DNA of 64,000 nt, taken from IMG/VR virus record IMGVR_UViG_3300021255_000042, positions 1 to 64,000 of that record. One strand, written 5' to 3'. The position numbers and the translations under genes were made by a program. Below are positions 1,838 through 57,649 of this stretch, piece by piece. The DNA comes from a virus (taxonomy: Duplodnaviria; Caudoviricetes). The notes beneath the pieces are model-generated. The model did not search any database. It was given only the letters and a program-made list of their open reading frames with translations, and had not been told where the DNA came from. Numbering within the stretch: the first letter of the stretch is position 1; the number at the start of each line of letters is the position of its first letter.

Positions 1838-3652
1838 ATGAAAGAAAAGCCATACGATCTTGGGTACTACAACCCGATTTACAGAGAGGTGTTAGAGCTT
1901 CTGCCGAATAATACCGATGTGGTGATATTCGACAAGTTCTGGCACGAGTACGTTGCGCGTGTACGTGGCAACCGGTCTCTGTATTTCCAACTCAGCGCAA
2001 GGGACATTGAGCGGAGAACTGAGATCGGGCACAACCACGCATCCAAGCACATCAAACGTATGGTGGAAATCGGAATCCTCCTTCAAGACGGAAAGAATTT
2101 TTCAGTCGCTGGGGATTACGTTCTTTCGCTCCTCAATACGTATCGCTCCATCGATGATTGCGACCGGGAAGATTTCAGGGCTGCCGTCAACACGCACGAT
2201 ATTGATGCCCTGGAAGGATTTGGGTTCGTACAATATGATGGGATCACGTCAGAACTTAAATACCTGTCCGCAAAAACAGAGGGTGGGTTAAATTTAACCC
2301 AGGTGGGTGAAAATTCACCCGAACGGGTTAAAAATAATCCAAGTGGATTAAAAATAACCCAGTTGGATTCAATTGCACCCACCATCATTAATAATTACCG
2401 TGCGCGTGTACATGAAAATTACACAGTGACACAGGTTGTAGAGGCAATTTGCGGCATAAGTGGGTTAAATTTAACCCAGGTGGATATAATTTCACCCGCC
2501 GCAGAGATATTTTCCGATGCTGAAACCATTAGCCGGGATGCCGAATTCATCCTTTTCATCCTCGCCACACAAATTTCGCCTGAGGGTGGGTTAAATTTAA
2601 TCCACCCGGTGGGTCAAAATTCACCCACCTCCGGGTTAAAATTAACCCACAGAAATATAATAAAAGAAAATAATGATGAAAATGATGGGATGCCTTCGGC
2701 ATCCTATATAGGGGGTGAAAATGATTTGAAGGATAAAAAGGTTGAAGAACTTCCCAGTGATGAATTCAAAAACATTGACATGGCAGGTTACTCCCAGGCA
2801 AAATTAAAATCTCAATTGCCACTGTACACTTCCCAGGAAATCCAAGAAATCTTGAACAATCCCCAGGAAGCAATCACATCAAACGACAAACTTTTCATCC
2901 GGGTTCTCTGGAACATCGCCAAGGAGCAGGCCGCACTTGATTACGATGATCAGGAAATCGAGGTAGATGTTGAGGGGTACAAATTCCCAGCTGAAAGATT
3001 TCAAAGAGACATCCTTTCACAGGCACTGGAGGAAACGAACGAAATCATCGAGCAAGGCTTGTTATCAACCGGCAAGGAAAACCTTCCAGTAGAATTGGAA
3101 GAATTACAGCCGGATCAGGTTTCGCTCATTGTTGATTGGGAGACCGGAAAGGACAGCGAAGGTTCTTATATCGTTGGCTCCACTTCCAGGTTCCACAAGA
3201 TTTATTCGGAGGCGGTTGAGGCTCCCAGGCGCAAGCGCGGTAGAGGAAACGCAGAAGAGCGCGACAAGGCGAAGGCATATTTCCGATACATCCTCAAATG
3301 CACCGATGAAGAGTATGACCAGCTTTCCGACATTGAGGCCGCAATCTACAATTTTGCGCATGACTTCCTGGAAGTGAATTACGATGAGGGTGAAGTTACC
3401 GGCCTCCAAGATTCAGAAGACCTCCAGCAGAAGTTCATATCACCTGAGAGATACACGGCCTTCATAGCCTCACTAAGCGAAAGCGGCATCAACATCACCA
3501 AGGAGGACTTCGAATCGGTTCTCAACCAGGCAGAGCGTTCGATGACCGGCTCCCTGGAGCATATCGGAGAGACGATGTATTCGATTTTCTCATACGAGAA
3601 GATTCAGGCGTGGATTCAAAAGCACGGCCTCCAGTCACCGATTAACATTTAA
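1838..3652 (+). CDS. putative replication initiator (N-terminal wHTH, internal iterons)
   Basis: LSARDIERRTEIGHNHASKHIKRMVEIGIL resembles a wHTH; iteron cluster inside the gene, as in lambda O-type initiators. Confidence 0.6.
   Translation: MKEKPYDLGYYNPIYREVLELLPNNTDVVIFDKFWHEYVARVRGNRSLYFQLSARDIERRTEIGHNHASKHIKRMVEIGILLQDGKNFSVAGDYVLSLLNTYRSIDDCDREDFRAAVNTHDIDALEGFGFVQYDGITSELKYLSAKTEGGLNLTQVGENSPERVKNNPSGLKITQLDSIAPTIINNYRARVHENYTVTQVVEAICGISGLNLTQVDIISPAAEIFSDAETISRDAEFILFILATQISPEGGLNLIHPVGQNSPTSGLKLTHRNIIKENNDENDGMPSASYIGGENDLKDKKVEELPSDEFKNIDMAGYSQAKLKSQLPLYTSQEIQEILNNPQEAITSNDKLFIRVLWNIAKEQAALDYDDQEIEVDVEGYKFPAERFQRDILSQALEETNEIIEQGLLSTGKENLPVELEELQPDQVSLIVDWETGKDSEGSYIVGSTSRFHKIYSEAVEAPRRKRGRGNAEERDKAKAYFRYILKCTDEEYDQLSDIEAAIYNFAHDFLEVNYDEGEVTGLQDSEDLQQKFISPERYTAFIASLSESGINITKEDFESVLNQAERSMTGSLEHIGETMYSIFSYEKIQAWIQKHGLQSPINI
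2285..2648. repeat. ten 16-bp palindromic iterons (consensus GGGTTAAATTTAACCC), candidate origin
   Basis: Copies at 2285, 2305, 2325, 2345, 2365 (20-nt period), 2462, 2482, 2588, 2611 and 2633. Confidence 0.85.
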
Positions 3653-4308: not shown

Positions 4309-4563
4309 ATGAAAAGAAGCGAGTATGAAATTGGCCAGTACTTATTCGATGGCCAGCACGCATTCATCCACGATGGCTACATTAACGCAGACGGTTACGG
4401 CGTTGTCATCGGTTACTACGAGCACGAGCTGCGCAAGAACTCCGGCTATGGCAATTGGCAGAAGGACTGCGAAGTACGTCCAGCAACTGAAGTCGAAATC
4501 AGAAACCTGATTTGCGACATTATGAACTTCCAGGGTAGAATCAAATGTTATAGCGAACCGTAG
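4309..4563 (+). CDS. hypothetical protein
   Basis: ORF in gene string. Confidence 0.6.
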   Translation: MKRSEYEIGQYLFDGQHAFIHDGYINADGYGVVIGYYEHELRKNSGYGNWQKDCEVRPATEVEIRNLICDIMNFQGRIKCYSEP

Positions 4564-4998: not shown

Positions 4999-5255
4999 CT
5001 ATGCACTTCTTTTCTGTAATAAGACGCAAGCTTGAAGAAAGAAAATTCAAGAAGGAGCTGGACGAGCTAATGAAAAACGAGGCCGTCAGAATGTTGAAAG
5101 AGTATGTTGGTGATTATTTGTTACCATCGTTTAGCGATACTTCAGCTTCCTTCCAGGAATTATGTAAATGCGGAGGCGTACTTCTAAATGGGGTTCCACT
5201 TGTTGACCCCAGTAAAATCAAAACAATATATTTTTTAACAACAAACCATCAATCT

Positions 5256-5546
5256 ATGCACAAATTACTTACTTTCGGTGAAGCCATCGAAGCTCTGAAG
5301 CAGGGCAAGAAGGTGGCACGTGAAGGATGGAACGGCAAGGGTATGTTCCTTTGGCTCAAACCGGCCACAACAATCAAATCGGATTGGTGCAAAGACCCGA
5401 TCCTGAAGTCTATCGTAGATGCAAACGGCGGTGAGACCGAGGCCCTTGGAACCATCTGTATGAAGACAGCGGACGGCAAGGTTCTCACCGGCTGGCTCGC
5501 TTCCCAGACCGATATGCTCCTGGAAGACTGGGTGATAATCGAGTAG
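5256..5546 (+). CDS. DUF2829 / Tad2-like anti-Thoeris sponge family protein (frame is open back to 4971)
   Basis: TFGEAIEALKQGKKVAREGWNGKGMFL...GWLASQTDMLLEDW signature. Confidence 0.75.
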   Translation: MHKLLTFGEAIEALKQGKKVAREGWNGKGMFLWLKPATTIKSDWCKDPILKSIVDANGGETEALGTICMKTADGKVLTGWLASQTDMLLEDWVIIE

Positions 5547-6095: not shown

Positions 6096-6125
6096 AGCCC
6101 CGCGTCATAACCGTGGGGCTTTTTT
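6096..6125 (+). terminator. intrinsic terminator between convergent genes
   Basis: AGCCCCGCG...CGTGGGGCT stem followed by a T-run. Confidence 0.6.
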
Positions 6126-7014
6126 ATTTGGCAAGGCGGTCGCGTAGCAATTCCACAACGTCACACAAAGCTTCCAGGGCCTCTTCATGGGACTGGAAAT
6201 AGTTACCGGCGATATAGCGTTGCTGGGAGGTTGGTGTACCACGCTCAATGTTCTTGACCACCTTCAGCTTGTCATTGATACTCCAGTACGGCTGGCCCAC
6301 TTCAACTTTTACTTTAATTGGCTCGATCCGGTGCAGCTTGTCATACCACACCTTCCCGCACTTCTCCAGTTCACGGTTCATTCTTCGCTGGGCCACTATC
6401 GTCATCGGCTCAAAGTGGAATTCGTGAAAGGTACAGGCGTTCCATTCGTGCATCGAGTAGCCGCAGGTTTTGTTGGTGTATGAGTAGTAGCAGTAGAGTT
6501 CGATTTTGTTCTCGGCTGGAAGAATTGACCGTACCACACCCAGACCGGCCTCATTTTGGTTGTGGTAAAGGATTCGTTCGTTGATGGGGGGAATGTACTT
6601 CTCAGTCAATATGCCGCGCCTACGGTCGAATTCGAGGCCCTGTCTGGAAAGTTCAACGTGCAGTCGGAATTGTTCTTCTTCAGGAAGCGTGACAAGATCG
6701 GCTGTTTTTACGGCTTTGTTGGAAATTTTCAACGGATTCGTGGAAATTTCGGCACATATCTGGGAAACTTCCAGGCCACTTTCGGAAATTATGACATGGT
6801 GGCAGTCAAGTAGCGCAATGTCTCCACGTGCGGGCGTATGCGCGTACCATTTAATGAATTGGTCGCCGGTAAGTCCGGCCTTGGAGTATGATGGTCGGAA
6901 GGTGCCTATTCTGATGTGGCGTTTCTGGCAGTATGATTGTATGATTTCCCAGTCGGTCGGCGAAGAAAACACCTTGGAGAAGAGGAAGTGCTGGACTTGG
7001 TATTCAGTCTTCAT
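6124..7014 (-). CDS. hypothetical protein (296 aa)
   Basis: Long ORF; TTTG / TTCCTTTG promoter-like elements upstream. Confidence 0.75.
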   Translation of the reverse strand: MKTEYQVQHFLFSKVFSSPTDWEIIQSYCQKRHIRIGTFRPSYSKAGLTGDQFIKWYAHTPARGDIALLDCHHVIISESGLEVSQICAEISTNPLKISNKAVKTADLVTLPEEEQFRLHVELSRQGLEFDRRRGILTEKYIPPINERILYHNQNEAGLGVVRSILPAENKIELYCYYSYTNKTCGYSMHEWNACTFHEFHFEPMTIVAQRRMNRELEKCGKVWYDKLHRIEPIKVKVEVGQPYWSINDKLKVVKNIERGTPTSQQRYIAGNYFQSHEEALEALCDVVELLRDRLAK

Positions 7015-7599
7015 AAGCTGGAATTTGCAAAGGGTTCAACTAAGTGTCTGCAAAGGAAAGCATATTTTTGATGATGTGCAAATGAAATATCAATTTGGCC
7101 GGAATTTCGGATTCGTTTCGGAGGGTCGGGGAAAATTTTGGGATTTTGCATGGAAAGGGTTATTAAACGGCGAAAGGTAGTTTGTGGTTAATGACGGGAT
7201 CAGGCTGGAAGGGTTGTTACTTCATACTACGTATGAAACTTATTTGCGTCATCAAAAATTCGCCTTTAATGGTTGATGGCCGGAAAATTTTTGGGAATTG
7301 GGTAATGGCCGGTCTATAACTGGGAGGGTGGAACTATGAGGTGATTCCCAGGGCATCAAAATTCGTTTTCAGTAGCCGGGCCGGAATTTACAGATGGCAT
7401 TCGCACCACAAGGCACACCCACCTTTCCATTTTTCGTTTGTTAACTTATTGCTACGCAATAAGTTAGCAAGGTTCACTTTTGGGATTAGTGAAACTGCCT
7501 CGTGCGCCCACGCGTTATAAACCCTTCCTTAGAGGTTTCCCTTTTTGGGTAACAATTTTGTTACATTTTGGCCGATTTTTGCTTGTTTGCACAAAGACT

Positions 7600-10365
7600 C
7601 CCGTCTTTGTGCAACGTATGTGCGCACACATATCGTATGCGCCCACACATCACACACGTCAAGGCCACACGCGATTCTGCGCCCACGTCAACAACGCCCA
7701 CGGAATCGCGTGTGGCCTTGACGCACAATGCGTTGCGTAAGGGCCTGCACACTCCCAGCACGGCCACAAGGCCGTCACGAAACTCGCACGTAACTTTCCT
7801 GCGCATTATGCCCTCGTAAGTCACACACAAGTTTCCCAGCGGCCTCCAACGTGCGCGTGCATCGTCCGTGACGCGTGTTGTCCGGTGCGCAGAACTGCGT
7901 GTGGGACATCGTGTGTGTATGTGTGGGCCTTGCGTGCGATCGCGTGAGGCTCTGCGTAGAACTGCACGTGGCCTTGACGCACGTGTCGGGCAGGCCGTCC
8001 GTATGCTTGGGCACCCAAAGCCGTGCGTGGAACTACGCGTAGCTTTCCGTGGGCGTATCTGGGCGTTCACGTGAGCCCGCCTGGATGTGCATCCGTGAGT
8101 CCATGTGTGCCCACGCCAGTGTACGTGGAGGCGTGTAGGTGCGCCCAGGTGGACGTGTGTATGTGCCCACGTGCTTAGGTGTGGGCGTGCACACACAAGG
8201 CCACGGACAGGCGAAACTGGCACGGACGCCCAGGACAGGGCGCGTGATTTTCCTGGGCGCGAGGGTGTTTTGAGCGTAGCTCAAAAGGTGCGTGACGCAC
8301 GCCCTAAACAGGCGTGACTGACGGGCCGTAGCCTGCGCCGTTTTGGGCCAACTTTGCATCGGCAGCCAGCCAAGACCGACCTCGGCGGTCTGAAACAAAG
8401 TTTCAGCAAGCAAGTTTCCGAGGGCTTGTTTGCAAAGCAAACAAAACATCGCATTATGTCACACAACACCAACACCGCCGCCAAGAACGTAGTTCTTGCC
8501 AACACCAAGTCCAACACCGTTGCTAACGAAGTTAGCAAGCAGACCGAGACCAAGACCGAGCCTAAAACCCAAAGGGTTTTAGAGAGCCGTGACGATTGGG
8601 AGCGCATCTTCGGCCACACCTGCAAGCTGGTCGTTAGCGTAGCTAACGGGGAGTCGCTTGAATCGGACTGCCGTGACGGTTTTAGCTTCGCTAAAGTTGC
8701 CGTTGCTCCCCACAGCCGAGCCTACGCACAGAGCCTGCTTGCTGGCTTTGCCAGCAAGAAAGCCGACAAGTTCACTCTCGGCTCTGCTCTTTCAGAGCAG
8801 GACACCAGACGCAAGATAGCTTTAGCTATCTTGAAGGCCACGAAACTCGGTGGCAAGGATGCACAGGCGATGCTCAGCAAAGCTGAGCCGAAACAAGCCA
8901 AGTCCTTCTGCGAGGCCGTTCTTGCTACCCTTTAGGGTAGCAAAACACCTCGTTTTTCACTCCCATCGCTCTCGTAACCCTCTCTTTCAGAGAGGGTTAA
9001 ATTTTGCTCTCCTTACGCGTGGGCCCACATACGCGCACGCAATTATCGCGTCCATCCGTGCCCACGTGTATCGCGTGGGATTCCATTCCGTGCGCACGTC
9101 GGCCCACGTTTTGCGTTGCACGCCCGTAACACGTGCCTGGGAGCGCACACAACACCCACGCCCGCGCACTATATACGCGTGGCCACCTGCACAACACACC
9201 CACGCTCCCAGCACAGGCCCTGGCCACGCCGACAACGTGCACCACCGCAACGTGCAACGTGGGCCTCCAGAGCTGGCCACTAAACGCGTGAGGTTTGCCA
9301 CATATCCCCAGAGGTGGCCAGGCCCAAACGTGTGGTCGCCCACAAGCAAACGAGCCGACCTCGTGGATGCCCAACATTCCAGCGTGGCCACATTTTCGTG
9401 GCAGTCCAACCCGATGAGGTGGCCAGCCGTTGTGGTTGCCCAAAGCGTGACTTTTGGCCACCCAACTGCCGGTGTGTGGGCATCCAAGTCGCCCTGCATT
9501 GGCCGTCCACGTAAGTTGCGTGAGCGTACATCCGTTGCGTTGGGCATCCACGTGCGATCATGTGGGCATCCATCCAGTACGTGTGACTATCCACGTGTGT
9601 TGCCTGGGAGACCACTCGCGTCCATCCGGGTTGCGTGGCCGTCCAACGTGTAGGCGTGAAAGTCCACGGCGTGTATGTGGGAGCCCATAGCGTGAGGCTG
9701 GAGGCGTGATGGCCGTCCACCTGCGTAACGTGGGCCTCCATCCAGCATAGTTGGGCGAGCATTGGACGTGCGTGGGCCTCCAAGACGGCTTGCTATGGAC
9801 TCCCACGCGGATTACGTGGCCGTCCAACAATATGCCGTGGTCGCCCAAGACGATGCCGCTATGGGCCTCCATCCCAGTCCACAACCCAAACGCGTGGCTT
9901 TCCACCCGTGTTTGTGGGCCTCCACGTAAGGAGCTTCGTGGGTGCCCATCAGTATGCGTGGCCGCCCAATGTTGCCGAGCTTTGGCCGTCCATACGCGTC
10001 CACGTCTGGCAACGCGAGGCATTTCGTGGGTGCGCCTGGAATGACGTGGGCCTCCGTATCAGGACGCGTGGACGCAGAGTGGCCGTGCAATTTGCCTTGC
10101 GTGGGCACCCATATCCCAGGCATTGTGGCCGTCCACCCGCAATCACGTGACCGCCCACAAAGGCACGTGGACGTTTCGTGGGAGTGTCGTGGAGGTGTGG
10201 TGGGCATACGTGGACGTGCTGTGGCCACGCCTGGATGCAGATGGGCGCAGCGTGGACTTGTGTGTGGGCCCACATCGCCTATACGTGGACGCTCGCCGTG
10301 GGCCAGTATGATGTACCCGTCCAGGCCGGAGAGCGTGGGCGATTGTCTGGGCAGGCGTTCCTTGA
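7600..10365. repeat. degenerate palindrome-rich, purine-pyrimidine-alternating non-coding region (interrupted by gene 8456-8935)
   Basis: Recurring TGGCCGTCCA, TGGGCCTCC, TGGGCATCCA, CACGTG and ACGCGT; perfect 21-bp inverted repeat 7657-7677/7703-7723. Confidence 0.75.
8456..8935 (+). CDS. hypothetical protein whose coding DNA is saturated with perfect hairpins
   Basis: ATG 8456 after an A-rich leader; 159-aa frame with natural composition; stop lies in a hairpin. Confidence 0.6.
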   Translation: MSHNTNTAAKNVVLANTKSNTVANEVSKQTETKTEPKTQRVLESRDDWERIFGHTCKLVVSVANGESLESDCRDGFSFAKVAVAPHSRAYAQSLLAGFASKKADKFTLGSALSEQDTRRKIALAILKATKLGGKDAQAMLSKAEPKQAKSFCEAVLATL

Positions 10366-10419
10366 CATTCAATAACCAAAGAAAGACTTGACAGAAAGAA
10401 AAACTTTTTTTGCAATTTA

Positions 10420-10451
10420 TTTGCATACACAAAAAAGTTGCACTACCTTTG
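10420..10451 (+). promoter_or_regulatory. Bacteroidetes primary-sigma promoter
   Basis: TTTG (10420) then 20 nt then TACCTTTG (10444), matching the -33/-7 consensus. Confidence 0.7.
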
Positions 10452-10932
10452 TGTCAGATTTCGGTTGCAAATCGATGCAAAGGTTTCAGCACGAAATTTA
10501 TGAAAGGTTTTCATACGGCAACGTTCACACAATGTGCGATTTACGAGCAAGTGTATGTGTCTGACACTGCACACGCAAGAGTTGAGCTAAACCGAGTAAT
10601 CAAGTTCTTTGACATACGGAGTTGTTCCACAAGCACGAGATACACCTGCATCTGATGCGTTACATAGGCCAAGGCGTGCGAGCAACACGGACACTGCGAG
10701 TAAGCAAGTTCTGAACTTTCCGAAAACTTTTTCCAAACGAACAACAAAGGTTTGATGCTCTAATGCACCTGTGCATTACAGGCGGTTGCAAGTCCGCAAT
10801 CATTAGCCCAAATAGGCTTTTGACAAGTCAGAGCAGAGCAACAAAATTTTCATCACAAACACACAAACACACGGAAGGCGGTGTGTGGGTGTTAACAAGC
10901 AGGCGAGGAAAGGTCGCCAAGTCGAAACAATT

Positions 10933-11571
10933 ATGGCAAAGAATAACGCCACCAACAACAACGTCAAGTTCAACGTTACCTACGGCATCCTCGGCACGGA
11001 CAATGTACCCGCAAATGCAGCTGTGCTCCTGAACGAGCGTAAGATGCGCATTGAGGGCGACCTCGTATCAGCCACCGAATTCCTCGCAATTGACGGTGTG
11101 AAATCCACCAAGGCCGAGGACATCGTGATGCCCGTACTCGCCGTGATGCTGGCAGACCTCCGTGAGCGTGAGGGATTCGCCAACGAGTTCAAGGTCGTCG
11201 TCCTCAACGGCACGGAGACGGACAGCCGCATCCGTGCGAAGAGCTACTTCACGAAGTACCTCAAGGGCAACGTCATCTACAAGTCCAACTCCGAGGGCAA
11301 TCTGAACAAGGCCGTCATTCTGGACGAGGGCCTGCGCCTGAGCGGAACCTGCATCAAGCCGACCGCCAAACAGCCCATCTTCACGGCCAAGGGCAATGAC
11401 CTGCGTGTGATTATGCACCAGACCGCCCTCGCCTTCATCAAGCAGGCATCGATGTTCAGCGGAATCATCAGCAAGGCTCGCGCAATCTTCGAGTGCGCTT
11501 ACACCGAGGAGCAGAAAGTTGCTCCCAAGCCGACCAAGACCGAGACCGCACAGGCCGTTGCAGCTGCCTAA
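10933..11571 (+). CDS. hypothetical protein, codon usage suggests high expression
   Basis: ATG 10933; strong C-ending codon bias. Confidence 0.8.
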   Translation: MAKNNATNNNVKFNVTYGILGTDNVPANAAVLLNERKMRIEGDLVSATEFLAIDGVKSTKAEDIVMPVLAVMLADLREREGFANEFKVVVLNGTETDSRIRAKSYFTKYLKGNVIYKSNSEGNLNKAVILDEGLRLSGTCIKPTAKQPIFTAKGNDLRVIMHQTALAFIKQASMFSGIISKARAIFECAYTEEQKVAPKPTKTETAQAVAAA

Positions 11572-24690: not shown

Positions 24691-25956
24691 ATGGAAGACA
24701 AAATTCTATCAATGTTCTTTGAAATGGAACGCTGGCAGTACGCCATCGGAAAGGGCATTGGTAAGGACGTAAGGCGCGATCAGCTCTACCAACTTGCCAA
24801 GCCTGAAGTCCGTGCGGCCATCTACCAGGCCATCAAGGAAGGGCGGTATCAAATTTCACCGCCACACACAGCAAAAATCCCCAAGGATACTCCTGGGGAA
24901 TTCAGAACGGTCTATGTCAACGAACCGATTGACCGCATCGTCCTCAGTATCGCAAACGACCTCCTGTTTGAGTTGTGCCCGGATATGATTCACCCGGCGT
25001 GCAAGTCCTACCAGAAGGGAATCGGATGCGGCAAGGTCGTGCAGCAGGTCAGTCATATCGTTTGTGAGACCAAAGGTAACATTCGTGGCTGGAAGTCAGA
25101 CCTCAGCAAGTATTTCGATTCGGTTCCAATCCGCTTTATTGACGGAGTGTTCGACAAGGTTGAACAGCGTCACGGTAAGTCTGCCGTTATCGATGTTTTG
25201 CGGAAGTACTACCACAGCAACGTCTTCTTCAACGAGGATGGTGTGGTATGTGAAGCTTACCAGTCTCTCAAACAAGGTTGCGCAGTCGCCGCCTTCCTCG
25301 CCGATGCCATCCTGTATCACGTTGACCAGAAGCTTGCCGACCTGGGTGGGTTCTACATTCGCTACTCGGATGATATGCTCTTCTTGGGCGAGAACTACGA
25401 AAAAGCAATGCAGATTCTCCAGGACGAGCTGGGAAAGATGGAAATGAAGCTCAACCCCAAGAAGGTCGAATACCTGACCGCCGACAAGTGGTTCAAGTTC
25501 CTCGGCTATTCCATCAAGGGTGCAGACATTTCATTATCCTCCACACGCATCAAGACCTTCCAGAAAGAGATTGAACACCGCACCATCAAGAATCGCGGGA
25601 TTTCTATGAAGAAGGCCGTGAACGCGGTTAACCGGTATCTGTACAAGGGTAACGGCGAATTCAGCTGGGCCACACAAATCCTTCCAGTCTGCAACGTCCG
25701 CAAGGACATCGACACCTTGAATGTGTTCGTGATGGATTGCCTGCGGGCCGTGGTGACTGGTAAGCGCAAGATCGGTGGCCTCGGTTACGTTGTAAGCGGA
25801 AAGGATGGCTGTATTGCCAGGGGCCGTGGAAGGAACGTGACCGCAAACCGCCAGAAAACCGAGAAAGAAATTGAAGGGTACCTCACGCTGGGATGTATGC
25901 AAAATGCAATAGTCACGCGGAGGGCCGTTTACAATACACTTGTAGCATCACTTTAG
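24691..25956 (+). CDS. reverse transcriptase (stand-alone, array-associated)
   Basis: IPKD..FRTVYV, KSDLSKYFDSV, LKQGCAVAAFLA, YIRYSDDMLF and FKFLGYSI motifs; no endonuclease domain visible. Confidence 0.92.
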   Translation: MEDKILSMFFEMERWQYAIGKGIGKDVRRDQLYQLAKPEVRAAIYQAIKEGRYQISPPHTAKIPKDTPGEFRTVYVNEPIDRIVLSIANDLLFELCPDMIHPACKSYQKGIGCGKVVQQVSHIVCETKGNIRGWKSDLSKYFDSVPIRFIDGVFDKVEQRHGKSAVIDVLRKYYHSNVFFNEDGVVCEAYQSLKQGCAVAAFLADAILYHVDQKLADLGGFYIRYSDDMLFLGENYEKAMQILQDELGKMEMKLNPKKVEYLTADKWFKFLGYSIKGADISLSSTRIKTFQKEIEHRTIKNRGISMKKAVNAVNRYLYKGNGEFSWATQILPVCNVRKDIDTLNVFVMDCLRAVVTGKRKIGGLGYVVSGKDGCIARGRGRNVTANRQKTEKEIEGYLTLGCMQNAIVTRRAVYNTLVASL

Positions 25957-52349: not shown

Positions 52350-54067
52350 AGCTCGTCAATTGTAAACAGTTCATCTTTGTTGTCGAAAAGGATGTCATCA
52401 CCTTCCTCTATTTCATCTGCATAAATTGTTATCGGCTCTTCCTCGCCGTCCCTGCGGACATAAAGCTGTGCATCACGGTCGATCTTCAAGGTCTTGCCAT
52501 TTCCCAGGGTGACTTCAACATAGTCGCTGGAATCGATGTCTTCACCGATTATTGTGGTACTGGAAGGATAGAGCCCGGCCCTTTCGGGAAGTAGGAACCG
52601 CTCGAAGATGAGGTCATAACGAAGCGGATCAATGAGGGTGATGCCAAGGAGGTACAACAGCAACGAACCCGCCGCCGAGCCTCGTCCACACCCAACGAGA
52701 ATGTTGTTTCTACGGCTCCAATTACAGGTGTCGTACTGAACGAGAAGATAGTCAACATTGTTGGTAGATTCTATTATGTACTTTTCATACTCCATCTGCT
52801 TGCGGTACTTCTCCTGGCTTTCAGCGTCCTTCGGAACAAGCCGGTCGAAACCTTCTTCAAGAAGCTGGATAAACATATTGTGCGTGGTGCCGTACTTCTC
52901 TGCCTCTTCCGGTGTCATGGTGTATTTCGGCATAAAGTTGCGGTCGTTCTCAAACCTGGCGGTGGCGTGTTCCGCAATGAAAACTGCGTTGGAAGCGCAC
53001 TCTTCGAACAAGGCTTCAATATCCCAGGCTTCTTCATCAAAGAGCTGGGTGAATAATGCGTAATGTTCGTCAACATCCTTAAAGTATTGCTCATCGCTCT
53101 GCTCATGCGCCGCGCCGGAAGCAATCTTGTTTAGGATAATCTTGTTCTTCGAATCGGTCTTGTCAAGATAATAGGCATCGGTGAGAAGAACCGGATCAAC
53201 CGCATAGTCGGCATTGTCGTAAACCTTGTCGAAATACAGCTTGGCCGCTTCCAGGACACGGATGTCAATGCGCTCAGCCTTGTACTCAGTCAGATCAACC
53301 TGGAAGAAGATGTCGTCATAGCTTTCCTTCAGCTCTCTGACGGCCTTAGGATTGGCGATAATCCACTCGGACGAATACTTATCCAGGACGATAAAATTGC
53401 CCTCTCCACGGCGTTTTAATTCATCAAACGTAATGGTCTGGTCTTCGCTGTCAACCATAACGGCCTTTTGAATGCGGAGTAGGTTTCTCAGGCCCTTCTG
53501 GGTACTGACATAGACCTTTGCGCCAACCAAATCCTCTCCGTAGTGGAAAGAAAGCGAATATCCGAATACGAACTTTAGGCCCTCTTCATCACAGCATTTT
53601 TGGAGATTGTAGCAGGCAGCCATCGTGTTCCGGTCGCAGATTCCGATTGCCTTGTGGCCGAGGAACTTCGCCTTCTTCACCCACATCTCAGGCATAAAGC
53701 TTCCGTTTAGGAGTTCGAACGGCGTGTGTACGCCCAGGTTGACAATCTCAACATCGTTCTTGGCCGGTTCAACCCTGGTGCCGACATACTTCAGGATGTT
53801 CAGCGCGAAGCCTTTTCTAAGGTCGAAGTAATACCAGTTGTCACCGAACTTGAACGTGATGTAGTTGATGTCCTCTGCCATAAGAATCGCCGGTTCCTCC
53901 ATACTGTTGAAGATTACCTCGTTGTCCTTATTGAGCCTGAAGATGGAGTTGAGTTCACTCATATCTTCATAGTACACCTTGCCAAGACCTGGAAGCTCGA
54001 CAACCTCATTGTCAACGACAGTGTATTGTATTTTGTTGGCTTCAAGCCATTCAAGTAATTCGTTCAT
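52346..54067 (-). CDS. dnaE: DNA polymerase III alpha, N-terminal half (PHP domain)
   Basis: LGVHTPFELLNGS, GCGRGSAAGS and LIFERFL motifs. Confidence 0.9.
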   Translation of the reverse strand: MNELLEWLEANKIQYTVVDNEVVELPGLGKVYYEDMSELNSIFRLNKDNEVIFNSMEEPAILMAEDINYITFKFGDNWYYFDLRKGFALNILKYVGTRVEPAKNDVEIVNLGVHTPFELLNGSFMPEMWVKKAKFLGHKAIGICDRNTMAACYNLQKCCDEEGLKFVFGYSLSFHYGEDLVGAKVYVSTQKGLRNLLRIQKAVMVDSEDQTITFDELKRRGEGNFIVLDKYSSEWIIANPKAVRELKESYDDIFFQVDLTEYKAERIDIRVLEAAKLYFDKVYDNADYAVDPVLLTDAYYLDKTDSKNKIILNKIASGAAHEQSDEQYFKDVDEHYALFTQLFDEEAWDIEALFEECASNAVFIAEHATARFENDRNFMPKYTMTPEEAEKYGTTHNMFIQLLEEGFDRLVPKDAESQEKYRKQMEYEKYIIESTNNVDYLLVQYDTCNWSRRNNILVGCGRGSAAGSLLLYLLGITLIDPLRYDLIFERFLLPERAGLYPSSTTIIGEDIDSSDYVEVTLGNGKTLKIDRDAQLYVRRDGEEEPITIYADEIEEGDDILFDNKDELFTIDEL

Positions 54068-55119
54068 AATCTGTTATCTAAGGTTGTCAATTTGAATTCT
54101 ACTGGAGTTTTGATGTTTAGTGAGAAGGTGTCGAAGATTTCCCAGAAGTCCATTTCATCCCAGTCTTTTCCGTCACTCTCGATCCTTGCAATGTAGCAGT
54201 CGAAGTATTCGTTCAAGTCCATAGCGGCCTTGTTGATTGCCTCAGTTGCATCAGAATCATACCCTATCACAACCGTCCGCACGCCCTTGGATTGGAGCTT
54301 ATAAATCTGGGTGTCTGAAATCTTCTTCCCAAACGTGGCAACGGCTGCAATCCTTGTGTTGTCGTACAGATTGAGTTTCCTGGTGAGGGCAATCACATCG
54401 AACACACCCTCACAAAGAATCACGGTGTCGGTCTCGTCCTCTATCACAGAATCATAGTTGTAGAGCAGCTTGACGAAATCGTTCTCACCCTCCTTGGAGC
54501 CGCTGTTGTTGTACCGGCGAATCTCGAACTTTCCCTTCAGACGGGCCTGGCGATTGTATGCGTCAATCTTCTCCTTTGGCCACGTATGCCTGCTGATGTA
54601 GCCTACAACGTCACCACCGTCAATGATGGGAAACACCACATAATCGTCAAACTTGAAGTTCAGGCCGCGAGTGGTTCCAACTGGGAAGTACTCATAGTCG
54701 TCTGCCGTGAAGCCACGCGACTTAAGGTACGGATTCCGAAAGCAACGCTTCCATCCTTCAGGCATATCGACCACGTTCAGTTCATCGTCAATCTCTTCCT
54801 CGTCTATGGTAGCGAACTGTGGAATTTCAAGCGGCTGGAAGGAAGCTGTCTCTTGAATCTTCAGATCAGACCGGCCAATATCTTCCAGGAGCTGATTGAC
54901 ATCGGTTGTCGTGTGGCCGCAGGAGAAGCAGTGGGCCATAAAGAGTTTCTTCTTGGCCGTCTCTTTCCCGATATAAATGCCGAACTTGCCACCTGCGTGA
55001 CCACAATACGGGCAGTAAGGAACGATGAGGTTCTTGCGCCCGCCGTCCGGTTTGGCGTGAAGTTCGTTGGTGAGTTCCTGAATTAGAAACTCACGTTGTT
55101 CCCTATCGATATACATCAC
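54064..55119 (-). CDS. DNA primase (Zn finger + TOPRIM)
   Basis: CPYCG..HCFSCG; LCEGVFD; GYDSD. Confidence 0.85.
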   Translation of the reverse strand: MMYIDREQREFLIQELTNELHAKPDGGRKNLIVPYCPYCGHAGGKFGIYIGKETAKKKLFMAHCFSCGHTTTDVNQLLEDIGRSDLKIQETASFQPLEIPQFATIDEEEIDDELNVVDMPEGWKRCFRNPYLKSRGFTADDYEYFPVGTTRGLNFKFDDYVVFPIIDGGDVVGYISRHTWPKEKIDAYNRQARLKGKFEIRRYNNSGSKEGENDFVKLLYNYDSVIEDETDTVILCEGVFDVIALTRKLNLYDNTRIAAVATFGKKISDTQIYKLQSKGVRTVVIGYDSDATEAINKAAMDLNEYFDCYIARIESDGKDWDEMDFWEIFDTFSLNIKTPVEFKLTTLDNRL

Positions 55120-56471
55120 GCAGCCTTGTTAATGTTCATTGTACGAACACGGTCATAGAACTGCTCGTGTTGGTAATCGGTAGCAATGCGGAACGGTTCG
55201 CCCTTCTTGAACCAACGGGCCTTTGCAACGTGGATGCGCATCGTCTCTTCCTTCGCCTCACGGTCGGACTGGTTGAGCGTGATGAGGTGAGTAAGCGGCC
55301 TGGAAAGACCTTTGGCCTCGGAAGTATTGTACTCCGTCAGCACGTTCTTCTCATCATTGATCCACTCACGGTTCTCGATAGTGGCCTGGTAGGTAACAAC
55401 CATCCAGACATCCTCATCGGCGGCCAGGTCTTTTAGGTCGTTGGCAACGGCAATTCTCTTGTGACGTTCGCCGTTCTCGCCCCATTGCCTTCCAGAAGAA
55501 TCCGTAAGCAAGTCCATCGAATCCACTATAACAACGTCAGGATTCACGCCGTAGCGTTTCTTGAACTCCGTGATGCCGTTCTTGATGTCGATGGTCGATA
55601 CGTGGCAGTTGAACTTTGGATAGGATTTCACATAGAGCTTTCCAGATACACTCTTAAGCTCTTCCTCCATCTTTTCCAGTTCTGCGTCACGGATCGTGCC
55701 GGTCTCATACCTGAAGACATCACAGGCCGTAATAGCCGCCGAATAAGCGTTCACGGTCTCAGCCTTACTGCCCTCCAGCGAGAAATGAAGTACGTTCAAT
55801 CCGTCACGGCAGGCGTTGGCTCCGATATGACGGGCAACGTGGCTCTTTCCTACGCCGGTAGCGGCCATGAAGCAGGTAAGCTGGGTACGGAGGTCATGTG
55901 CTCCGTTGCGTTCGTCCAGCTCATCAATATAGAACCTGGTGATGGCACGCTTGCGGCCAACGGAGTTATGTTTCTGCCGGTTCTCCTTGAAGCGTGAACC
56001 AAACGTATCAATGACGTTCACATAGTCGGATTCGCGCAGGCTGAAGTTCTGAGACCAAGTAGCATAATCGTTCAGTTTGGTCTGGGCCTTCTCGTGTTCC
56101 TGCTTGTTGTAAAGCTCGCCTACCTCTTTGTAGGTTTTCTGGAAGCGGACTTGCTTTATGTACTGTTCAAGCTGTTCCAGGATTTCGTTTGTGCCGGTGA
56201 CGTTGGCAGTATCGTATATGTCTTCTGCAAGGGTAACGGCACCGCGATCACTCGCAATCGACTGTTTGAGGATGCTGAATGATGGGCAATGCTTGTACTC
56301 CTTGTAGTAATTTGATAGGGCCGTGTGGATTTTGATGAAGTCCTTGTCCGGCAGATAGTCCTTCTTGATGTTATCCACCACAACAGCCAGGATATACTCA
56401 TTATCCAAGCAGGTGCGGTAAACATCCATCAAGAATTCTTCCGTCAGGACATTATTTGTTTGATTCGCCAT
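55116..56471 (-). CDS. DnaB-like replicative helicase
   Basis: AATGVGKS, FSLEG, VIVDSMD and TYQ motifs; ATG 56471. Confidence 0.85.
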   Translation of the reverse strand: MANQTNNVLTEEFLMDVYRTCLDNEYILAVVVDNIKKDYLPDKDFIKIHTALSNYYKEYKHCPSFSILKQSIASDRGAVTLAEDIYDTANVTGTNEILEQLEQYIKQVRFQKTYKEVGELYNKQEHEKAQTKLNDYATWSQNFSLRESDYVNVIDTFGSRFKENRQKHNSVGRKRAITRFYIDELDERNGAHDLRTQLTCFMAATGVGKSHVARHIGANACRDGLNVLHFSLEGSKAETVNAYSAAITACDVFRYETGTIRDAELEKMEEELKSVSGKLYVKSYPKFNCHVSTIDIKNGITEFKKRYGVNPDVVIVDSMDLLTDSSGRQWGENGERHKRIAVANDLKDLAADEDVWMVVTYQATIENREWINDEKNVLTEYNTSEAKGLSRPLTHLITLNQSDREAKEETMRIHVAKARWFKKGEPFRIATDYQHEQFYDRVRTMNINKAA

Positions 56472-57045
56472 ATTCCACTCTGATTCTGAAGAGTTCGGGA
56501 TATTTCTTATCCGTCTCTCGTTTACATTGTTCAATAAAATTACAATCGCCGCAAGATTCTGAAAGTGGGCTCCAGCCAAGCGTAGATGATTGACAAATTG
56601 CAAATCCGACAGGACGGTTCAGTAGCCTTTTCTTCGTCTGTTCCTCGGATTGCAGATAGATGTAGCGTGCAAGGGGGTGTTCGCTCCGGTCAGCTATGAG
56701 TTGAATCAATGCGTCCCTCGTAAGCCCTCCCTCTTCCAGCCATTTATCTTCGTAGTACCGTGCGCCTCGCTTGGATTCTTTCAGCCTCTTGATTGAAGAC
56801 GGGCCGAATGCCTGGTTTACCGTCCAGGATTCACGGTTCTTATAAGCGTGCGCCGTGCAGATGCAAAAGTCAACCAGTCTTTCCTTAGTGACTGCGCCGA
56901 ACTCTTTCTCGAACAATCCTATGAATTTGGTCAAGACCCTGGCTGTCGAACCTCCCTGGGAAAACCGGAAGGAAGAATCAACCAGTTTCTTCTCGATCTC
57001 GCTAAAGACCTTCATTGTCTTCTTGACCCACTTTTCGCTCTCCAT
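56452..57045 (-). CDS. hypothetical protein
   Basis: ORF in the replication operon. Confidence 0.7.
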   Translation of the reverse strand: MESEKWVKKTMKVFSEIEKKLVDSSFRFSQGGSTARVLTKFIGLFEKEFGAVTKERLVDFCICTAHAYKNRESWTVNQAFGPSSIKRLKESKRGARYYEDKWLEEGGLTRDALIQLIADRSEHPLARYIYLQSEEQTKKRLLNRPVGFAICQSSTLGWSPLSESCGDCNFIEQCKRETDKKYPELFRIRVEYGESNK

Positions 57046-57649
57046 CTCGCGTTAAGTACTTTTTCATAAATTGTCGAGCCAGGTACAGGCGGCTCTTGAC
57101 GGTTTCTATGTTGTGGGACTTAAGTGTCCCTCGTTTGAATTCAATATCGGCTATCTCCTTAAGGGAATAACCGGCCTGTTGTAAGAGAAGTGCGTCCCGA
57201 TGAATCGGCTTCATCATATCGAGCACCTGAAGAATGTCATCGTTGTAATAGTCACGGTAATTATCGATCGACATAAACTTGTGAGAAGGTTTCTCAGTGT
57301 CGGGTATATTATCTTGGCAAGTATCGATGTTGTCGCAAAATTGCTCACTCTCTTCCTCCTCGGCCCTCTTCTTCTCCAGCTCGAAAACGCAACGTTTGGT
57401 GCAGATGTGTAGCCAAGTCTTGATCGAACGGGACGGATCGTAAGTTTCGATGCCCCGGTAGAAATTAATCAAGACCTCGTTATAGTTTTCACGGACGTTG
57501 CGCATACTTGTGGAGTACTGCATCACAAGCTTATAAATCATATTCTTGTAAGGCATAACATACTCCTGGAAGAGTTCGTTTCGTCTCTTTATGACTTCTG
57601 GCTCACGCTCTCGCTTTTCTCTTTCTTGATTGCGTACACTGTCCACCAT
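57002..57649 (-). CDS. ECF-type sigma factor
   Basis: YDPSRSIKTWLHICTKR (region 2); GYSLKEIA..ETVKSRLYLAR (region 4). Confidence 0.85.
   Translation of the reverse strand: MVDSVRNQEREKREREPEVIKRRNELFQEYVMPYKNMIYKLVMQYSTSMRNVRENYNEVLINFYRGIETYDPSRSIKTWLHICTKRCVFELEKKRAEEEESEQFCDNIDTCQDNIPDTEKPSHKFMSIDNYRDYYNDDILQVLDMMKPIHRDALLLQQAGYSLKEIADIEFKRGTLKSHNIETVKSRLYLARQFMKKYLTRDGERKVGQEDNEGL

Follow-up and report, generated by a model that had tools for sequence, protein, structure and literature searches.

In IMGVR_UViG_3300021255_000042, a 109,728-bp virus record of IMG/VR whose first 64 kb make up the window analysed here, a small protein gene (positions 8456–8935) and its surroundings are tiled with short, perfectly paired hairpins of one narrow design. 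As judged by comparison of 31 distinct versions of the gene, one stretch of DNA is shown to be under dual selection, for the encoded protein and for perfect hairpins of a single design; across homologues it is the structures of the hairpins that are conserved, not their sequences. The source is a large gut Bacteroidales phage. As to what the hairpins do, we favour, with a probability of roughly 0.4, action on DNA rather than on mRNA, as structure in a replication or control module.

Hairpin density, design and conservation

An inverted-repeat scan finds 14 perfect Watson–Crick stems of 6–11 bp at 8268–8999 (Table 1), 12 of them with 3-nt loops and two with a 2-nt centre. The open reading frame (ORF) 8456–8935 encloses nine of these hairpins whole, and a tenth (8922–8943) crosses its stop codon. 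The first-pass annotation of this DNA had described about 13 perfect short-loop hairpins tiling a gene and its leader, and all 14 that it listed were recovered where it had placed them. For the genome scan, the shuffling of the coding sequence (CDS) and the counts in homologues, we considered triloop hairpins with perfect Watson–Crick stems of at least 6 bp. Along the whole 109,728-bp genome, these number 12 in the 1-kb bin at 8–9 kb and at most three in every other bin, and it is in the 8–9 kb cluster alone, genome-wide, that the loops are limited to AAA, GAA, GTA or their complements with a C:G closing pair. The CDS holds eight such hairpins, a number reached by none of 2000 shuffles: 0.15 are expected if synonymous codons are drawn from the phage’s own usage, 0.88 if synonymous codons are permuted and 0.19 if codon order is shuffled. 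Folded as single-stranded DNA (ssDNA), 8260–9005 is more stable than dinucleotide shuffles, with z = -11.

For design statistics we collected 92 distinct hairpins, all of them triloop hairpins, from 13 diverse loci. Their stems measure 6–8 bp in 90% of cases, with a mode of 7, and the closing pair is C:G in 85%. Read on the purine-rich strand, the loop follows the pattern R-W-A: a purine at position 1 (G 59%, A 38%), A or T at position 2 (A 67%, T 25%) and A at position 3 (97%). GAA, AAA, GTA, TTC, TTT and TAC, i.e. three reverse-complement pairs, account for 79 of the 92 loops. The stem sequences are nearly all different, and a position matrix of the 92 hairpins, covering 25 nt of flank on each side, contains no information outside the five central positions. 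The same loops recur in non-coding hairpins, both here (those beginning at 8268, 8390, 8426, 7221 and 7442) and in relatives, and the loop set can therefore not be put down to codon usage. Two further ideas were set aside. Selfish palindromic repeat families (REP/BIME, MITE-like) do not account for the tile, given the diversity of the stem sequences and the lack of anything comparable in the remaining genome. The mid-gene switch of loop orientation seen in the window, with purine loops first and pyrimidine loops later, is not conserved in relatives; in homologues, loop orientation tracks the encoded residue.

The substitution pattern and the predicted fold identify the ORF as a genuine protein-coding gene, from which we infer that it is translated. 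Outside the stems, differences at codon positions 1/2/3 number 6/3/15 between the window and locus L003, 11/11/33 between loci L006 and L012, and 13/9/37 between L011 and L012. Alignment gaps comprise whole codons, and invariant residues (e.g. W48, F52, P85 and Y90) lie between the hairpins. AlphaFold2 predicts an all-alpha seven-helix domain, with a predicted local distance difference test score (pLDDT) above 90 for residues 41–160, and a disordered N-terminal segment of 34 residues; some homologues have lysine-rich tails. The protein has 56 homologues of 96–36% identity in a collection of 5.8 billion proteins, and a profile search of 1.8 billion representatives returned only 37 clusters, which makes this a small family. 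We detected no match to the protein in Pfam, PHROGs or NCBIfam and, using Foldseek against PDB and BFVD, none at E ≤0.001; the best hit of VIA-align against 48,161 chains (Z 5.3) is at noise level for helical proteins. The matches in the ESM Atlas are to unnamed viral clusters only.

Homologous loci were collected from viral contigs (13), metagenome contigs (30) and genome contigs (5), yielding 31 distinct CDS. All 31, at protein identities of 35–100%, contain 7–11 hairpins (mean 8.7), and with leader and trailer included the count per locus is 11–15. Alignment columns 61–73 and 244–253 hold a hairpin in 31/31 CDS, that of the former zone sitting at column 61, 67 or 73, and columns 134 and 349 hold one in 30/31. 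Further sites are clade-specific, their exact position (column 202, 205 or 214) differing from one clade to the next by a few codons. The stem sequences vary by lineage through paired changes. At the 8562–8582 site, for example, the left arm reads AAAACCC, ACTACCC, ACTACAC or AAAACTC and the right arm always matches; both-side changes are seen in four of the nine pairs (17 cells), and none of 500 shuffles reaches the observed covariation score. Between close relatives, third-position/synonymous differences amount to 10/246 in stems as compared to 127/578 elsewhere (Fisher p = 5e-12). At the level of sequence comparison, purifying selection, acting on the bases of the stems and also at their synonymous sites, is thus shown to keep the design. 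The first-pass annotation had proposed selection for folding of a segment that still codes for a protein; a hairpin density far above that of shuffles (0/2000) and the paired, compensatory changes in homologues uphold this, and hairpins are kept along with the protein in 31/31 homologues.

The hairpin constraint is strong enough to have marked the amino-acid sequences of all but a few of the family members examined. As a measure of this imprint we took the number of pentapeptides for which a coding sequence exists that forms a phase-1 palindrome centred on a codon for E, K, V, F or Y. By this measure the hairpin gene is the top outlier among the 141 ORFs of the genome, and most family members have 5–10 such pentapeptides vs 0.4–1.0 in shuffles, with four members showing only 2–4. 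The most distant members (27–32% identity) have 6–8, and their protein sequences suggest that their genes carry hairpins as well; scans of viral contigs with the distant homologues P0085, P0082 and P0076 gave no match.

The hairpins are all-or-none, i.e. either perfect or absent, with few single-mismatch intermediates. Furthermore, near-identical relatives can differ by an inverted loop between identical stems (GACCCC with AAA/TTT, TATAGC with TTT/AAA, TAAGCC with TAC/GTA). In the terminator hairpin of near-identical phages, the two forms are CGACCCC-AAA-GGGGTCG and CGACCCC-TTT-GGGGTCG (L006/L009/L012 ~4504–4520; L054 6512), a clean three-base loop inversion. Hairpins can arise and be maintained through template-switch mutations (Monttinen and Loytynoja 2022, PMC8794818), and template switching during replication probably contributes here in addition to selection, restoring perfect arms and sometimes inverting the loop.

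Could such conversion maintain the palindromes without any function of their own? The locus would have to spend unusual lengths of time single-stranded or supercoiled, as might happen at an origin or where protein-bound arrays flank it; template switching would then perfect chance quasi-palindromes and keep them, and these would persist since a palindrome inside a CDS cannot be lost by deletion. The all-or-none state of the hairpins, the inverting loops and the turnover of sites between clades (columns 202, 205, 214) are in line with this explanation, as is the preference for loop phase 1, which is shared with the coding palindromes of hairworm mitochondria, for which conversion maintenance is favoured by the authors who described them (PMC6649704). 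Conversion alone, however, leaves unexplained the narrow design (7-bp mode, C:G closing pair and R-W-A loops even in non-coding hairpins), the near-constant number of 7–11 hairpins per gene over 35–100% protein identity, the deep conservation of several sites in 30–31 of 31 homologues, and the lack of such hairpins in the rest of the 110-kb genome. Moreover, substitutions at synonymous sites are ~six-fold lower in stems, and conversion in random direction would at most halve the rate. We consider it unlikely that conversion without function accounts for the tile.

Loop inversion could also be taken for a programmed amino-acid switch that generates reversible protein variants: where the loop is one codon and the arms are codon-aligned, inversion swaps Glu/Lys for Phe and Val for Tyr with the frame kept. 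The loop is in phase with a codon at 11 of ~20 hairpin sites, and one natural inversion, that of TATAGC-TTT/AAA, alters the penultimate residue (...AVIALL vs ...AVIAKL). Loop orientation is, however, fixed at conserved sites (F at columns 172, 253 and 349; E or K at 214), and most of the observed inversions are located in the terminator or at the extreme C-terminus. A programmed switch is accordingly highly improbable.

DNA or mRNA as the level of action

By its sequence signals, the hairpin gene is a self-contained monocistronic transcription unit with its own -7 box and its own terminator. The best-conserved upstream block in eight diverse relatives is TAACTTTGCA, the -7 box, located ~100 nt before the ATG here, which predicts a transcription start near 8365. 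Being upstream of this box, the 8268–8286 hairpin is predicted to lie outside the mRNA. The 8975–8999 hairpin together with AAATTTTG qualifies as a Rho-independent terminator; the remaining 13 hairpins have no T run, and the homologous terminator hairpins of relatives have G:U pairs and a TTTT tail. The first-pass annotation had counted this last hairpin as part of the tile: it is present, but it is simply the terminator of the hairpin-gene unit.

Several observations point to DNA as the level at which the hairpins act. Firstly, the reverse complement of the loop set is the loop set itself, and hairpins of either orientation with respect to the coding strand are common (56:36 among the 92 hairpins). 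Secondly, the intragenic stems show no tolerance for G:U: the first mismatch that ends them is G:T in 19 cases, A:C in 19 and another in 55, as expected at random. An internal control is provided by the terminator hairpin of these transcripts, which alone has G:U inside the extended stem (9/9 such cases) and whose loops are unconstrained. Thirdly, a few hairpins of the same design are located upstream of the predicted promoter, both in this phage and in the cultured Bacteroides phage BS-TP1. Finally, loop inversion is the trace left by template switching at DNA hairpins, a process that also accounts for perfect stems and multi-base compensatory changes (PMC8794818). In addition, the loops and the C:G closing pair agree with what has been reported to govern the extrusion of hairpins at N4 promoters (PMC4496689) and the unusual stability of DNA mini-hairpins such as those at G4, St-1 and RSF1010 ssiA (PMC13037366). 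The proposal of the first-pass annotation that the C:G-closed GNA loops indicate a DNA-level feature agrees well with the reverse-complement-closed loop set, the 56:36 orientation and the absence of G:U tolerance. In the BS-TP1 clade, three upstream mini-hairpins fall within an annotated 126-aa ORF, gp56, in the left flank (L054 5277–5657; L006 3331–3711).

Alternatively, the hairpins may fold in the mRNA of the hairpin gene, stabilising it against RNases, tuning its translation or binding a protein. Protection could be against RNases specific for single strands, with host defence RNases and Cas13-type targeting in Bacteroidales among them; translation could be slowed or tuned; and template switching would be only the mutational route to perfect stems. 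Such a role suits the location of the hairpins, nearly all of which lie between the predicted start (~8365) and the terminator (8975–9008) in all 15 loci scanned: 8–12 design-matching hairpins per locus are inside the predicted transcript, 0–3 are upstream, and the 15 loci together have a single downstream one (L004, ~1.5 kb past the stop codon). It would also suit a self-contained transcription unit in a region with an anti-defence gene (Tad2-like, 5001–5546), and RNA hairpins are documented to be created and maintained by template switching (PMC8794818). An RNA has one sense strand, and the reverse-complement symmetry of the loop repertoire with its 56:36 orientation is therefore not what a role in RNA would lead one to expect. 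Nor are the loops RNA tetraloops: they are R-W-A triloops of DNA type. G:U pairs are not in excess at the ends of intragenic stems, although the terminator of the same RNA uses them, some same-design hairpins are upstream of the promoter, and linkers of 15–50 nt remain single-stranded, so that protection from RNases would be only partial. A role in mRNA is possible, though somewhat less likely than action on DNA.

As for transcripts, RNA-library contigs cover only 10471–10733 of the region, and the hairpin gene is outside that contig. A canonical Bacteroidetes promoter, TTTG...TACCTTTG, is located at 10420–10451 and is followed by this 263-nt stretch, which matches a contig of a bovine gut metatranscriptome run at 100% identity and is probably a transcribed leader or a small RNA before the gene at 10885/10933. 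A twister-P1 match at 10757–10839 is weak and sub-threshold, and a search with Rfam over 6500–11500 produced sub-threshold chance matches only.

Flanking arrays, genome context and a proposed role

The hairpin gene is the sole CDS in ~3 kb and is bracketed by GC-rich non-coding arrays (Table 1). The density of the array motif is ~20 per kb as compared to 1.1 per kb in the remaining genome, and the predominant orientation of GTGGSC is opposite in the left vs the right array. In the right array TGG recurs at 10–11, 20–22 and 31–33 nt, and the 20–22 nt period is also found in relatives, all of which have the arrays, conserved in position and not in sequence. From density and spacing, the arrays look like helically phased protein-binding sites, i.e. 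iteron-like. We also considered VIPR guide-RNA arrays, which are tandem YNNGG (GGY/NN) repeats with a 5-nt period (bioRxiv 10.64898/2026.04.26.720920). In the flanks, the autocorrelation of GGY at lag 5 is 0–3 on either strand and the dominant periods are 10–11 and 20–22 nt; phasing of this kind with no 5-nt period excludes VIPR arrays. At the boundary between AT-rich DNA and the left array, 7587–7614 forms a 12-bp perfect stem with a 4-nt loop (TTGCACAAAGAC-TCCC-GTCTTTGTGCAA), a design unlike that of the triloop hairpins.

Table 1. Hairpins, gene, transcription signals and arrays of the locus (window coordinates)
Feature	Position	Strand	Stem	Remarks
Hairpin TTCATAC-TAC-GTATGAA	7221..7237		7 bp	C:G closing pair; AT-rich intergenic DNA, upstream
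Hairpin, loop TAC (cTACg)	7442..7466		11 bp	upstream; also scores terminator-like on + strand
Left GC-rich non-coding array	7480..8260			motif GCCCAC(G), mostly inverse to right array; alternating purine-pyrimidine runs
Hairpin TTTTGAGC-GTA-GCTCAAAA	8268..8286		8 bp	~80 nt upstream of -7 box
Bacteroidetes -7 promoter box (predicted)	8350..8357	+		CAACTTTG here, TAACTTTG in all relatives
Hairpin, loop AAA	8390..8406	+	7 bp	5' leader
Hairpin, loop AAA	8426..8444	+	8 bp	5' leader
Protein gene, 159 aa	8456..8935	+		residues 1–34 predicted disordered; residues 35–159 predicted seven-helix domain
Hairpin CAAGAAC-GTA-GTTCTTG	8482..8498		7 bp	loop is one codon (phase 1)
Hairpin TTGCTAAC-GAA-GTTAGCAA	8520..8538		8 bp	zone of alignment columns 61–73
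Hairpin CTAAAACCC-AAA-GGGTTTTAG	8562..8582		9 bp	in 30/31 homologues
Hairpin CGTTAGC-GTA-GCTAACG	8632..8648		7 bp	clade-specific; displaced by 3 or 12 nt in other clades
Hairpin TTTAGC-TTC-GCTAAA	8681..8695		6 bp	here or 1–3 codons upstream (columns 244–253) in all homologues
Hairpin CTTGCTGGC-TTT-GCCAGCAAG	8738..8758		9 bp	codes for invariant peptide LLAGFASK; in 30/31 homologues
Hairpin CTGCTCT-TTC-AGAGCAG	8784..8800		7 bp	T:A closing pair
Palindrome CAAGATAGCT-TT-AGCTATCTTG	8812..8833		10 bp	2-nt centre, which is AT in a 92%-identical relative
Hairpin GCTCAGC-AAA-GCTGAGC	8872..8888		7 bp	perfect stem of at least 5 bp here in 16/31 homologues
Palindrome TTGCTACCCT-TT-AGGGTAGCAA	8922..8943		10 bp	crosses TAG stop codon
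Intrinsic terminator, loop TTC, then AAATTTTG (predicted)	8975..9008	+	11 bp	hairpin 8975–8999
Right GC-rich non-coding array	9010..10340			~45 copies of GTGG(G/C/A)C or complement, often CGTGGSCNTCCA

The order of genes and arrays is the same in every relative examined: a + strand gene of ~630 aa, a - strand gene of ~325 aa, AT-rich DNA followed by an array, the hairpin gene, an array of 1.3–1.7 kb, and two genes of ~210 aa and ~206 aa on the + strand. Among the relatives are contigs from genome assemblies of Muribaculaceae, Prevotella and Palleniella, as well as BS-TP1 (gp54–gp59; PQ571274.1; PMC12694917), a cultured temperate phage grown on Bacteroides salyersiae BG8 in which gp57 (66083–66565) is the counterpart of the hairpin gene. 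At the DNA level, blastn of the region against phage records gave no match. Two neighbouring genes, 1838–3652 and 6124–7014, gave no matches; ORF 1838–3652 contains AT-centred palindromes, namely TGGGTTAAATTTAACCCA twice, GGGTTAAAATTAACCC and GGGTGAAAATTCACCC (2284–2301, 2461–2478, 2633–2648, 2305–2320), which look like intragenic operator or binding sites. The gene at 5001–5546, 3 kb upstream of the hairpin gene, encodes a Tad2-like (Thoeris anti-defence 2) domain (Pfam PF11195, E = 3e-24), which suggests an anti-defence or early region beside the module.

Among the proteins of the phage are helicases of the DnaB-like and PIF1 types, a Toprim primase, a split DnaE polymerase and an exonuclease, along with an extracytoplasmic function (ECF)-type sigma factor; annotation of the genome yielded no recognisable initiator. 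Within the window, a reverse transcriptase (RVT_1), the Toprim primase with the DnaB-like helicase, and the ECF-type sigma factor are located at 24691–25956, 54064–56471 and 57002–57649, respectively. Beyond it are NrdD, an NAD-dependent ligase, a ClpP-like protease and a 2103-aa protein that ends in an Lcl_C lectin domain and is the likely target of a diversity-generating retroelement (DGR). GC skew tracks gene orientation and locates no origin. The record has a terminal repeat of 107 bp that looks like an assembly overlap; the coordinates are therefore likely arbitrary and uninformative on genome ends. In BS-TP1 the locus is at 66 kb of the 111.7-kb linear record, i.e. mid-genome. Of the roles offered by the first-pass annotation, first-entering DNA draws no support from these coordinates, and an origin, a packaging site or a recombination site would be a hypothetical role.

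By analogy with RSF1010 oriV and the origin of phage G4, the most likely role for the hairpins would be in a replication origin or control module. The hairpin gene would be the structure-forming core of such a module, with helically phased GTGGSC arrays on both sides. Unwinding or negative supercoiling would cause the hairpins to extrude; once extruded, these could resist single-stranded DNA-binding protein (SSB) and could serve as entry or priming sites for the phage’s DnaB-like helicase and Toprim primase. The gene product, all-alpha with a disordered N-terminus and, in some homologues, lysine-rich tails, may bind the arrays, and the array-loaded protein would then possibly be the product of the hairpin gene itself. 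Taken as a whole, the scheme would make the hairpin tile the core of an undescribed kind of phage replication/control origin, where arrays load a protein and torsion extrudes SSB-resistant hairpins for helicase/primase; in this complete form we regard it as improbable.

A number of points weigh against placing the hairpins at the DNA level in a replication or control module. The strict GNA loop, with its sheared G:A pair, has a 5' G, which is found in 59% of hairpins; AAA loops depart from GNA, and the 38% of loops that start with A rather than G thus have no sheared G:A pair. Stems of 6–8 bp are short for cruciforms. The concentration of hairpins inside the transcript suits an RNA-level or transcription-coupled role at least as well, and, judging by hairworm mitochondria (PMC6649704), perfect all-or-none palindromes could persist by conversion alone. 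Family and structure searches detect no similarity of the hairpin-gene protein to an initiator or DNA-binding fold. Finally, the iteron-like interpretation of the arrays, whose repeats are short and degenerate, comes from motif density and phasing alone.

Comparison with known systems

In their architecture, the hairpins resemble the early promoters of the phage N4 virion RNA polymerase, which have a short stem (5–7 bp), a 3-nt loop and C:G closing (PMC4496689). In N4, the hairpins can extrude from the duplex at physiological supercoiling owing to their C:G closing pair and 5'-purine...A-3' loop; three hairpins are located upstream of early genes, and conserved bases at -11, -10, -8 and +1 are read by the polymerase (PMC4496689). 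Unlike in N4, there are 12–14 hairpins per locus here, mostly intragenic and without conserved flanks. A search of the phage genome with PF00940 gave no match, control genomes being equally silent, and the large ORFs encode a DGR-target fibre, a tape-measure protein and the like. We therefore rejected N4-type hairpin promoters: there is no flanking conservation and no RNA polymerase gene was found, with the reservation that the PF00940 controls were silent too. The ssDNA promoter role that the first-pass annotation had entertained is, for the same reasons, unlikely.

Closer in function to the role proposed here are ssDNA initiation sites. The mini-hairpin motif occurs at the complementary-strand origins of G4, St-1 and alpha3 and at RSF1010 ssiA, and SSB binds it poorly (PMC13037366). 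The mini-hairpins of RSF1010 ssiA/ssiB and of the G4/St-1/alpha3 origins, C-GAA-G or GCGNAGC, are SSB-resistant and used by primase, and in RSF1010 oriV the ssi hairpins adjoin iterons and are on opposite strands (PMC13037366). These origins differ from the phage locus in that they have 1–3 hairpins of defined sequence in non-coding DNA, and in that priming has been shown (PMC13037366).

The layout of the locus also has parallels. Iterons flank or lie inside an initiator gene in P1 (incC-repA-incA) and in lambda, where ori is within gene O. Likewise, the locus has a small gene bracketed by helically phased repeats, and a DNA element inside its own CDS. It differs from P1 and lambda in that there is no winged-helix Rep or recognisable DNA-binding fold and the array motifs are short and degenerate, and in that the intragenic element is structural, made up of many different palindromes, rather than a set of sequence-specific binding sites.

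With regard to evolution, perfect stems, multi-base compensatory changes and loop inversion between identical stems are all shared with template switching as described for RNA genes (PMC8794818). That work describes a mutational mechanism, which leaves the constant number of hairpins of one design in a phage gene unexplained. The closest coding parallel is in the mitochondria of hairworms (Nematomorpha), where perfect inverted repeats are found in conserved, functional CDS, are either perfect or absent, turn over between lineages and prefer phase-1 loops, with template switching or conversion invoked for their maintenance (PMC6649704). The hairworm palindromes have arms of up to 284 bp and occur in most genes (PMC6649704); those of the phage have arms of 6–11 bp with a fixed loop and closing-pair design. 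Unlike in hairworms, the phage hairpins are confined to one gene and its surroundings in 110 kb, several sites are conserved family-wide, and the gene lies between iteron-like arrays.

Phages of this group are frequent in human, mouse and ruminant guts (Prevotella, Muribaculaceae, Bacteroides), and since the group has a cultured member, BS-TP1, the role of the hairpins, be it at the DNA or the RNA level, is directly testable. In our literature searches we came across neither a phage protein gene with a tile of mini-hairpins nor an iteron-flanked layout of this kind. To our knowledge, mini-hairpins of this design have elsewhere been described only as isolated signals, at N4 promoters and at the origins of phages and plasmids, and coding palindromes have been published only for hairworm mitochondria. 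Each of the ingredients has been described before: mini-hairpins, template switching and, for the mitochondria of one animal lineage, coding palindromes. Here, a single DNA stretch bears two independent, measurable constraints, a folded protein and a row of hairpins of strict design, and is among the clearest cases of its kind known to us.

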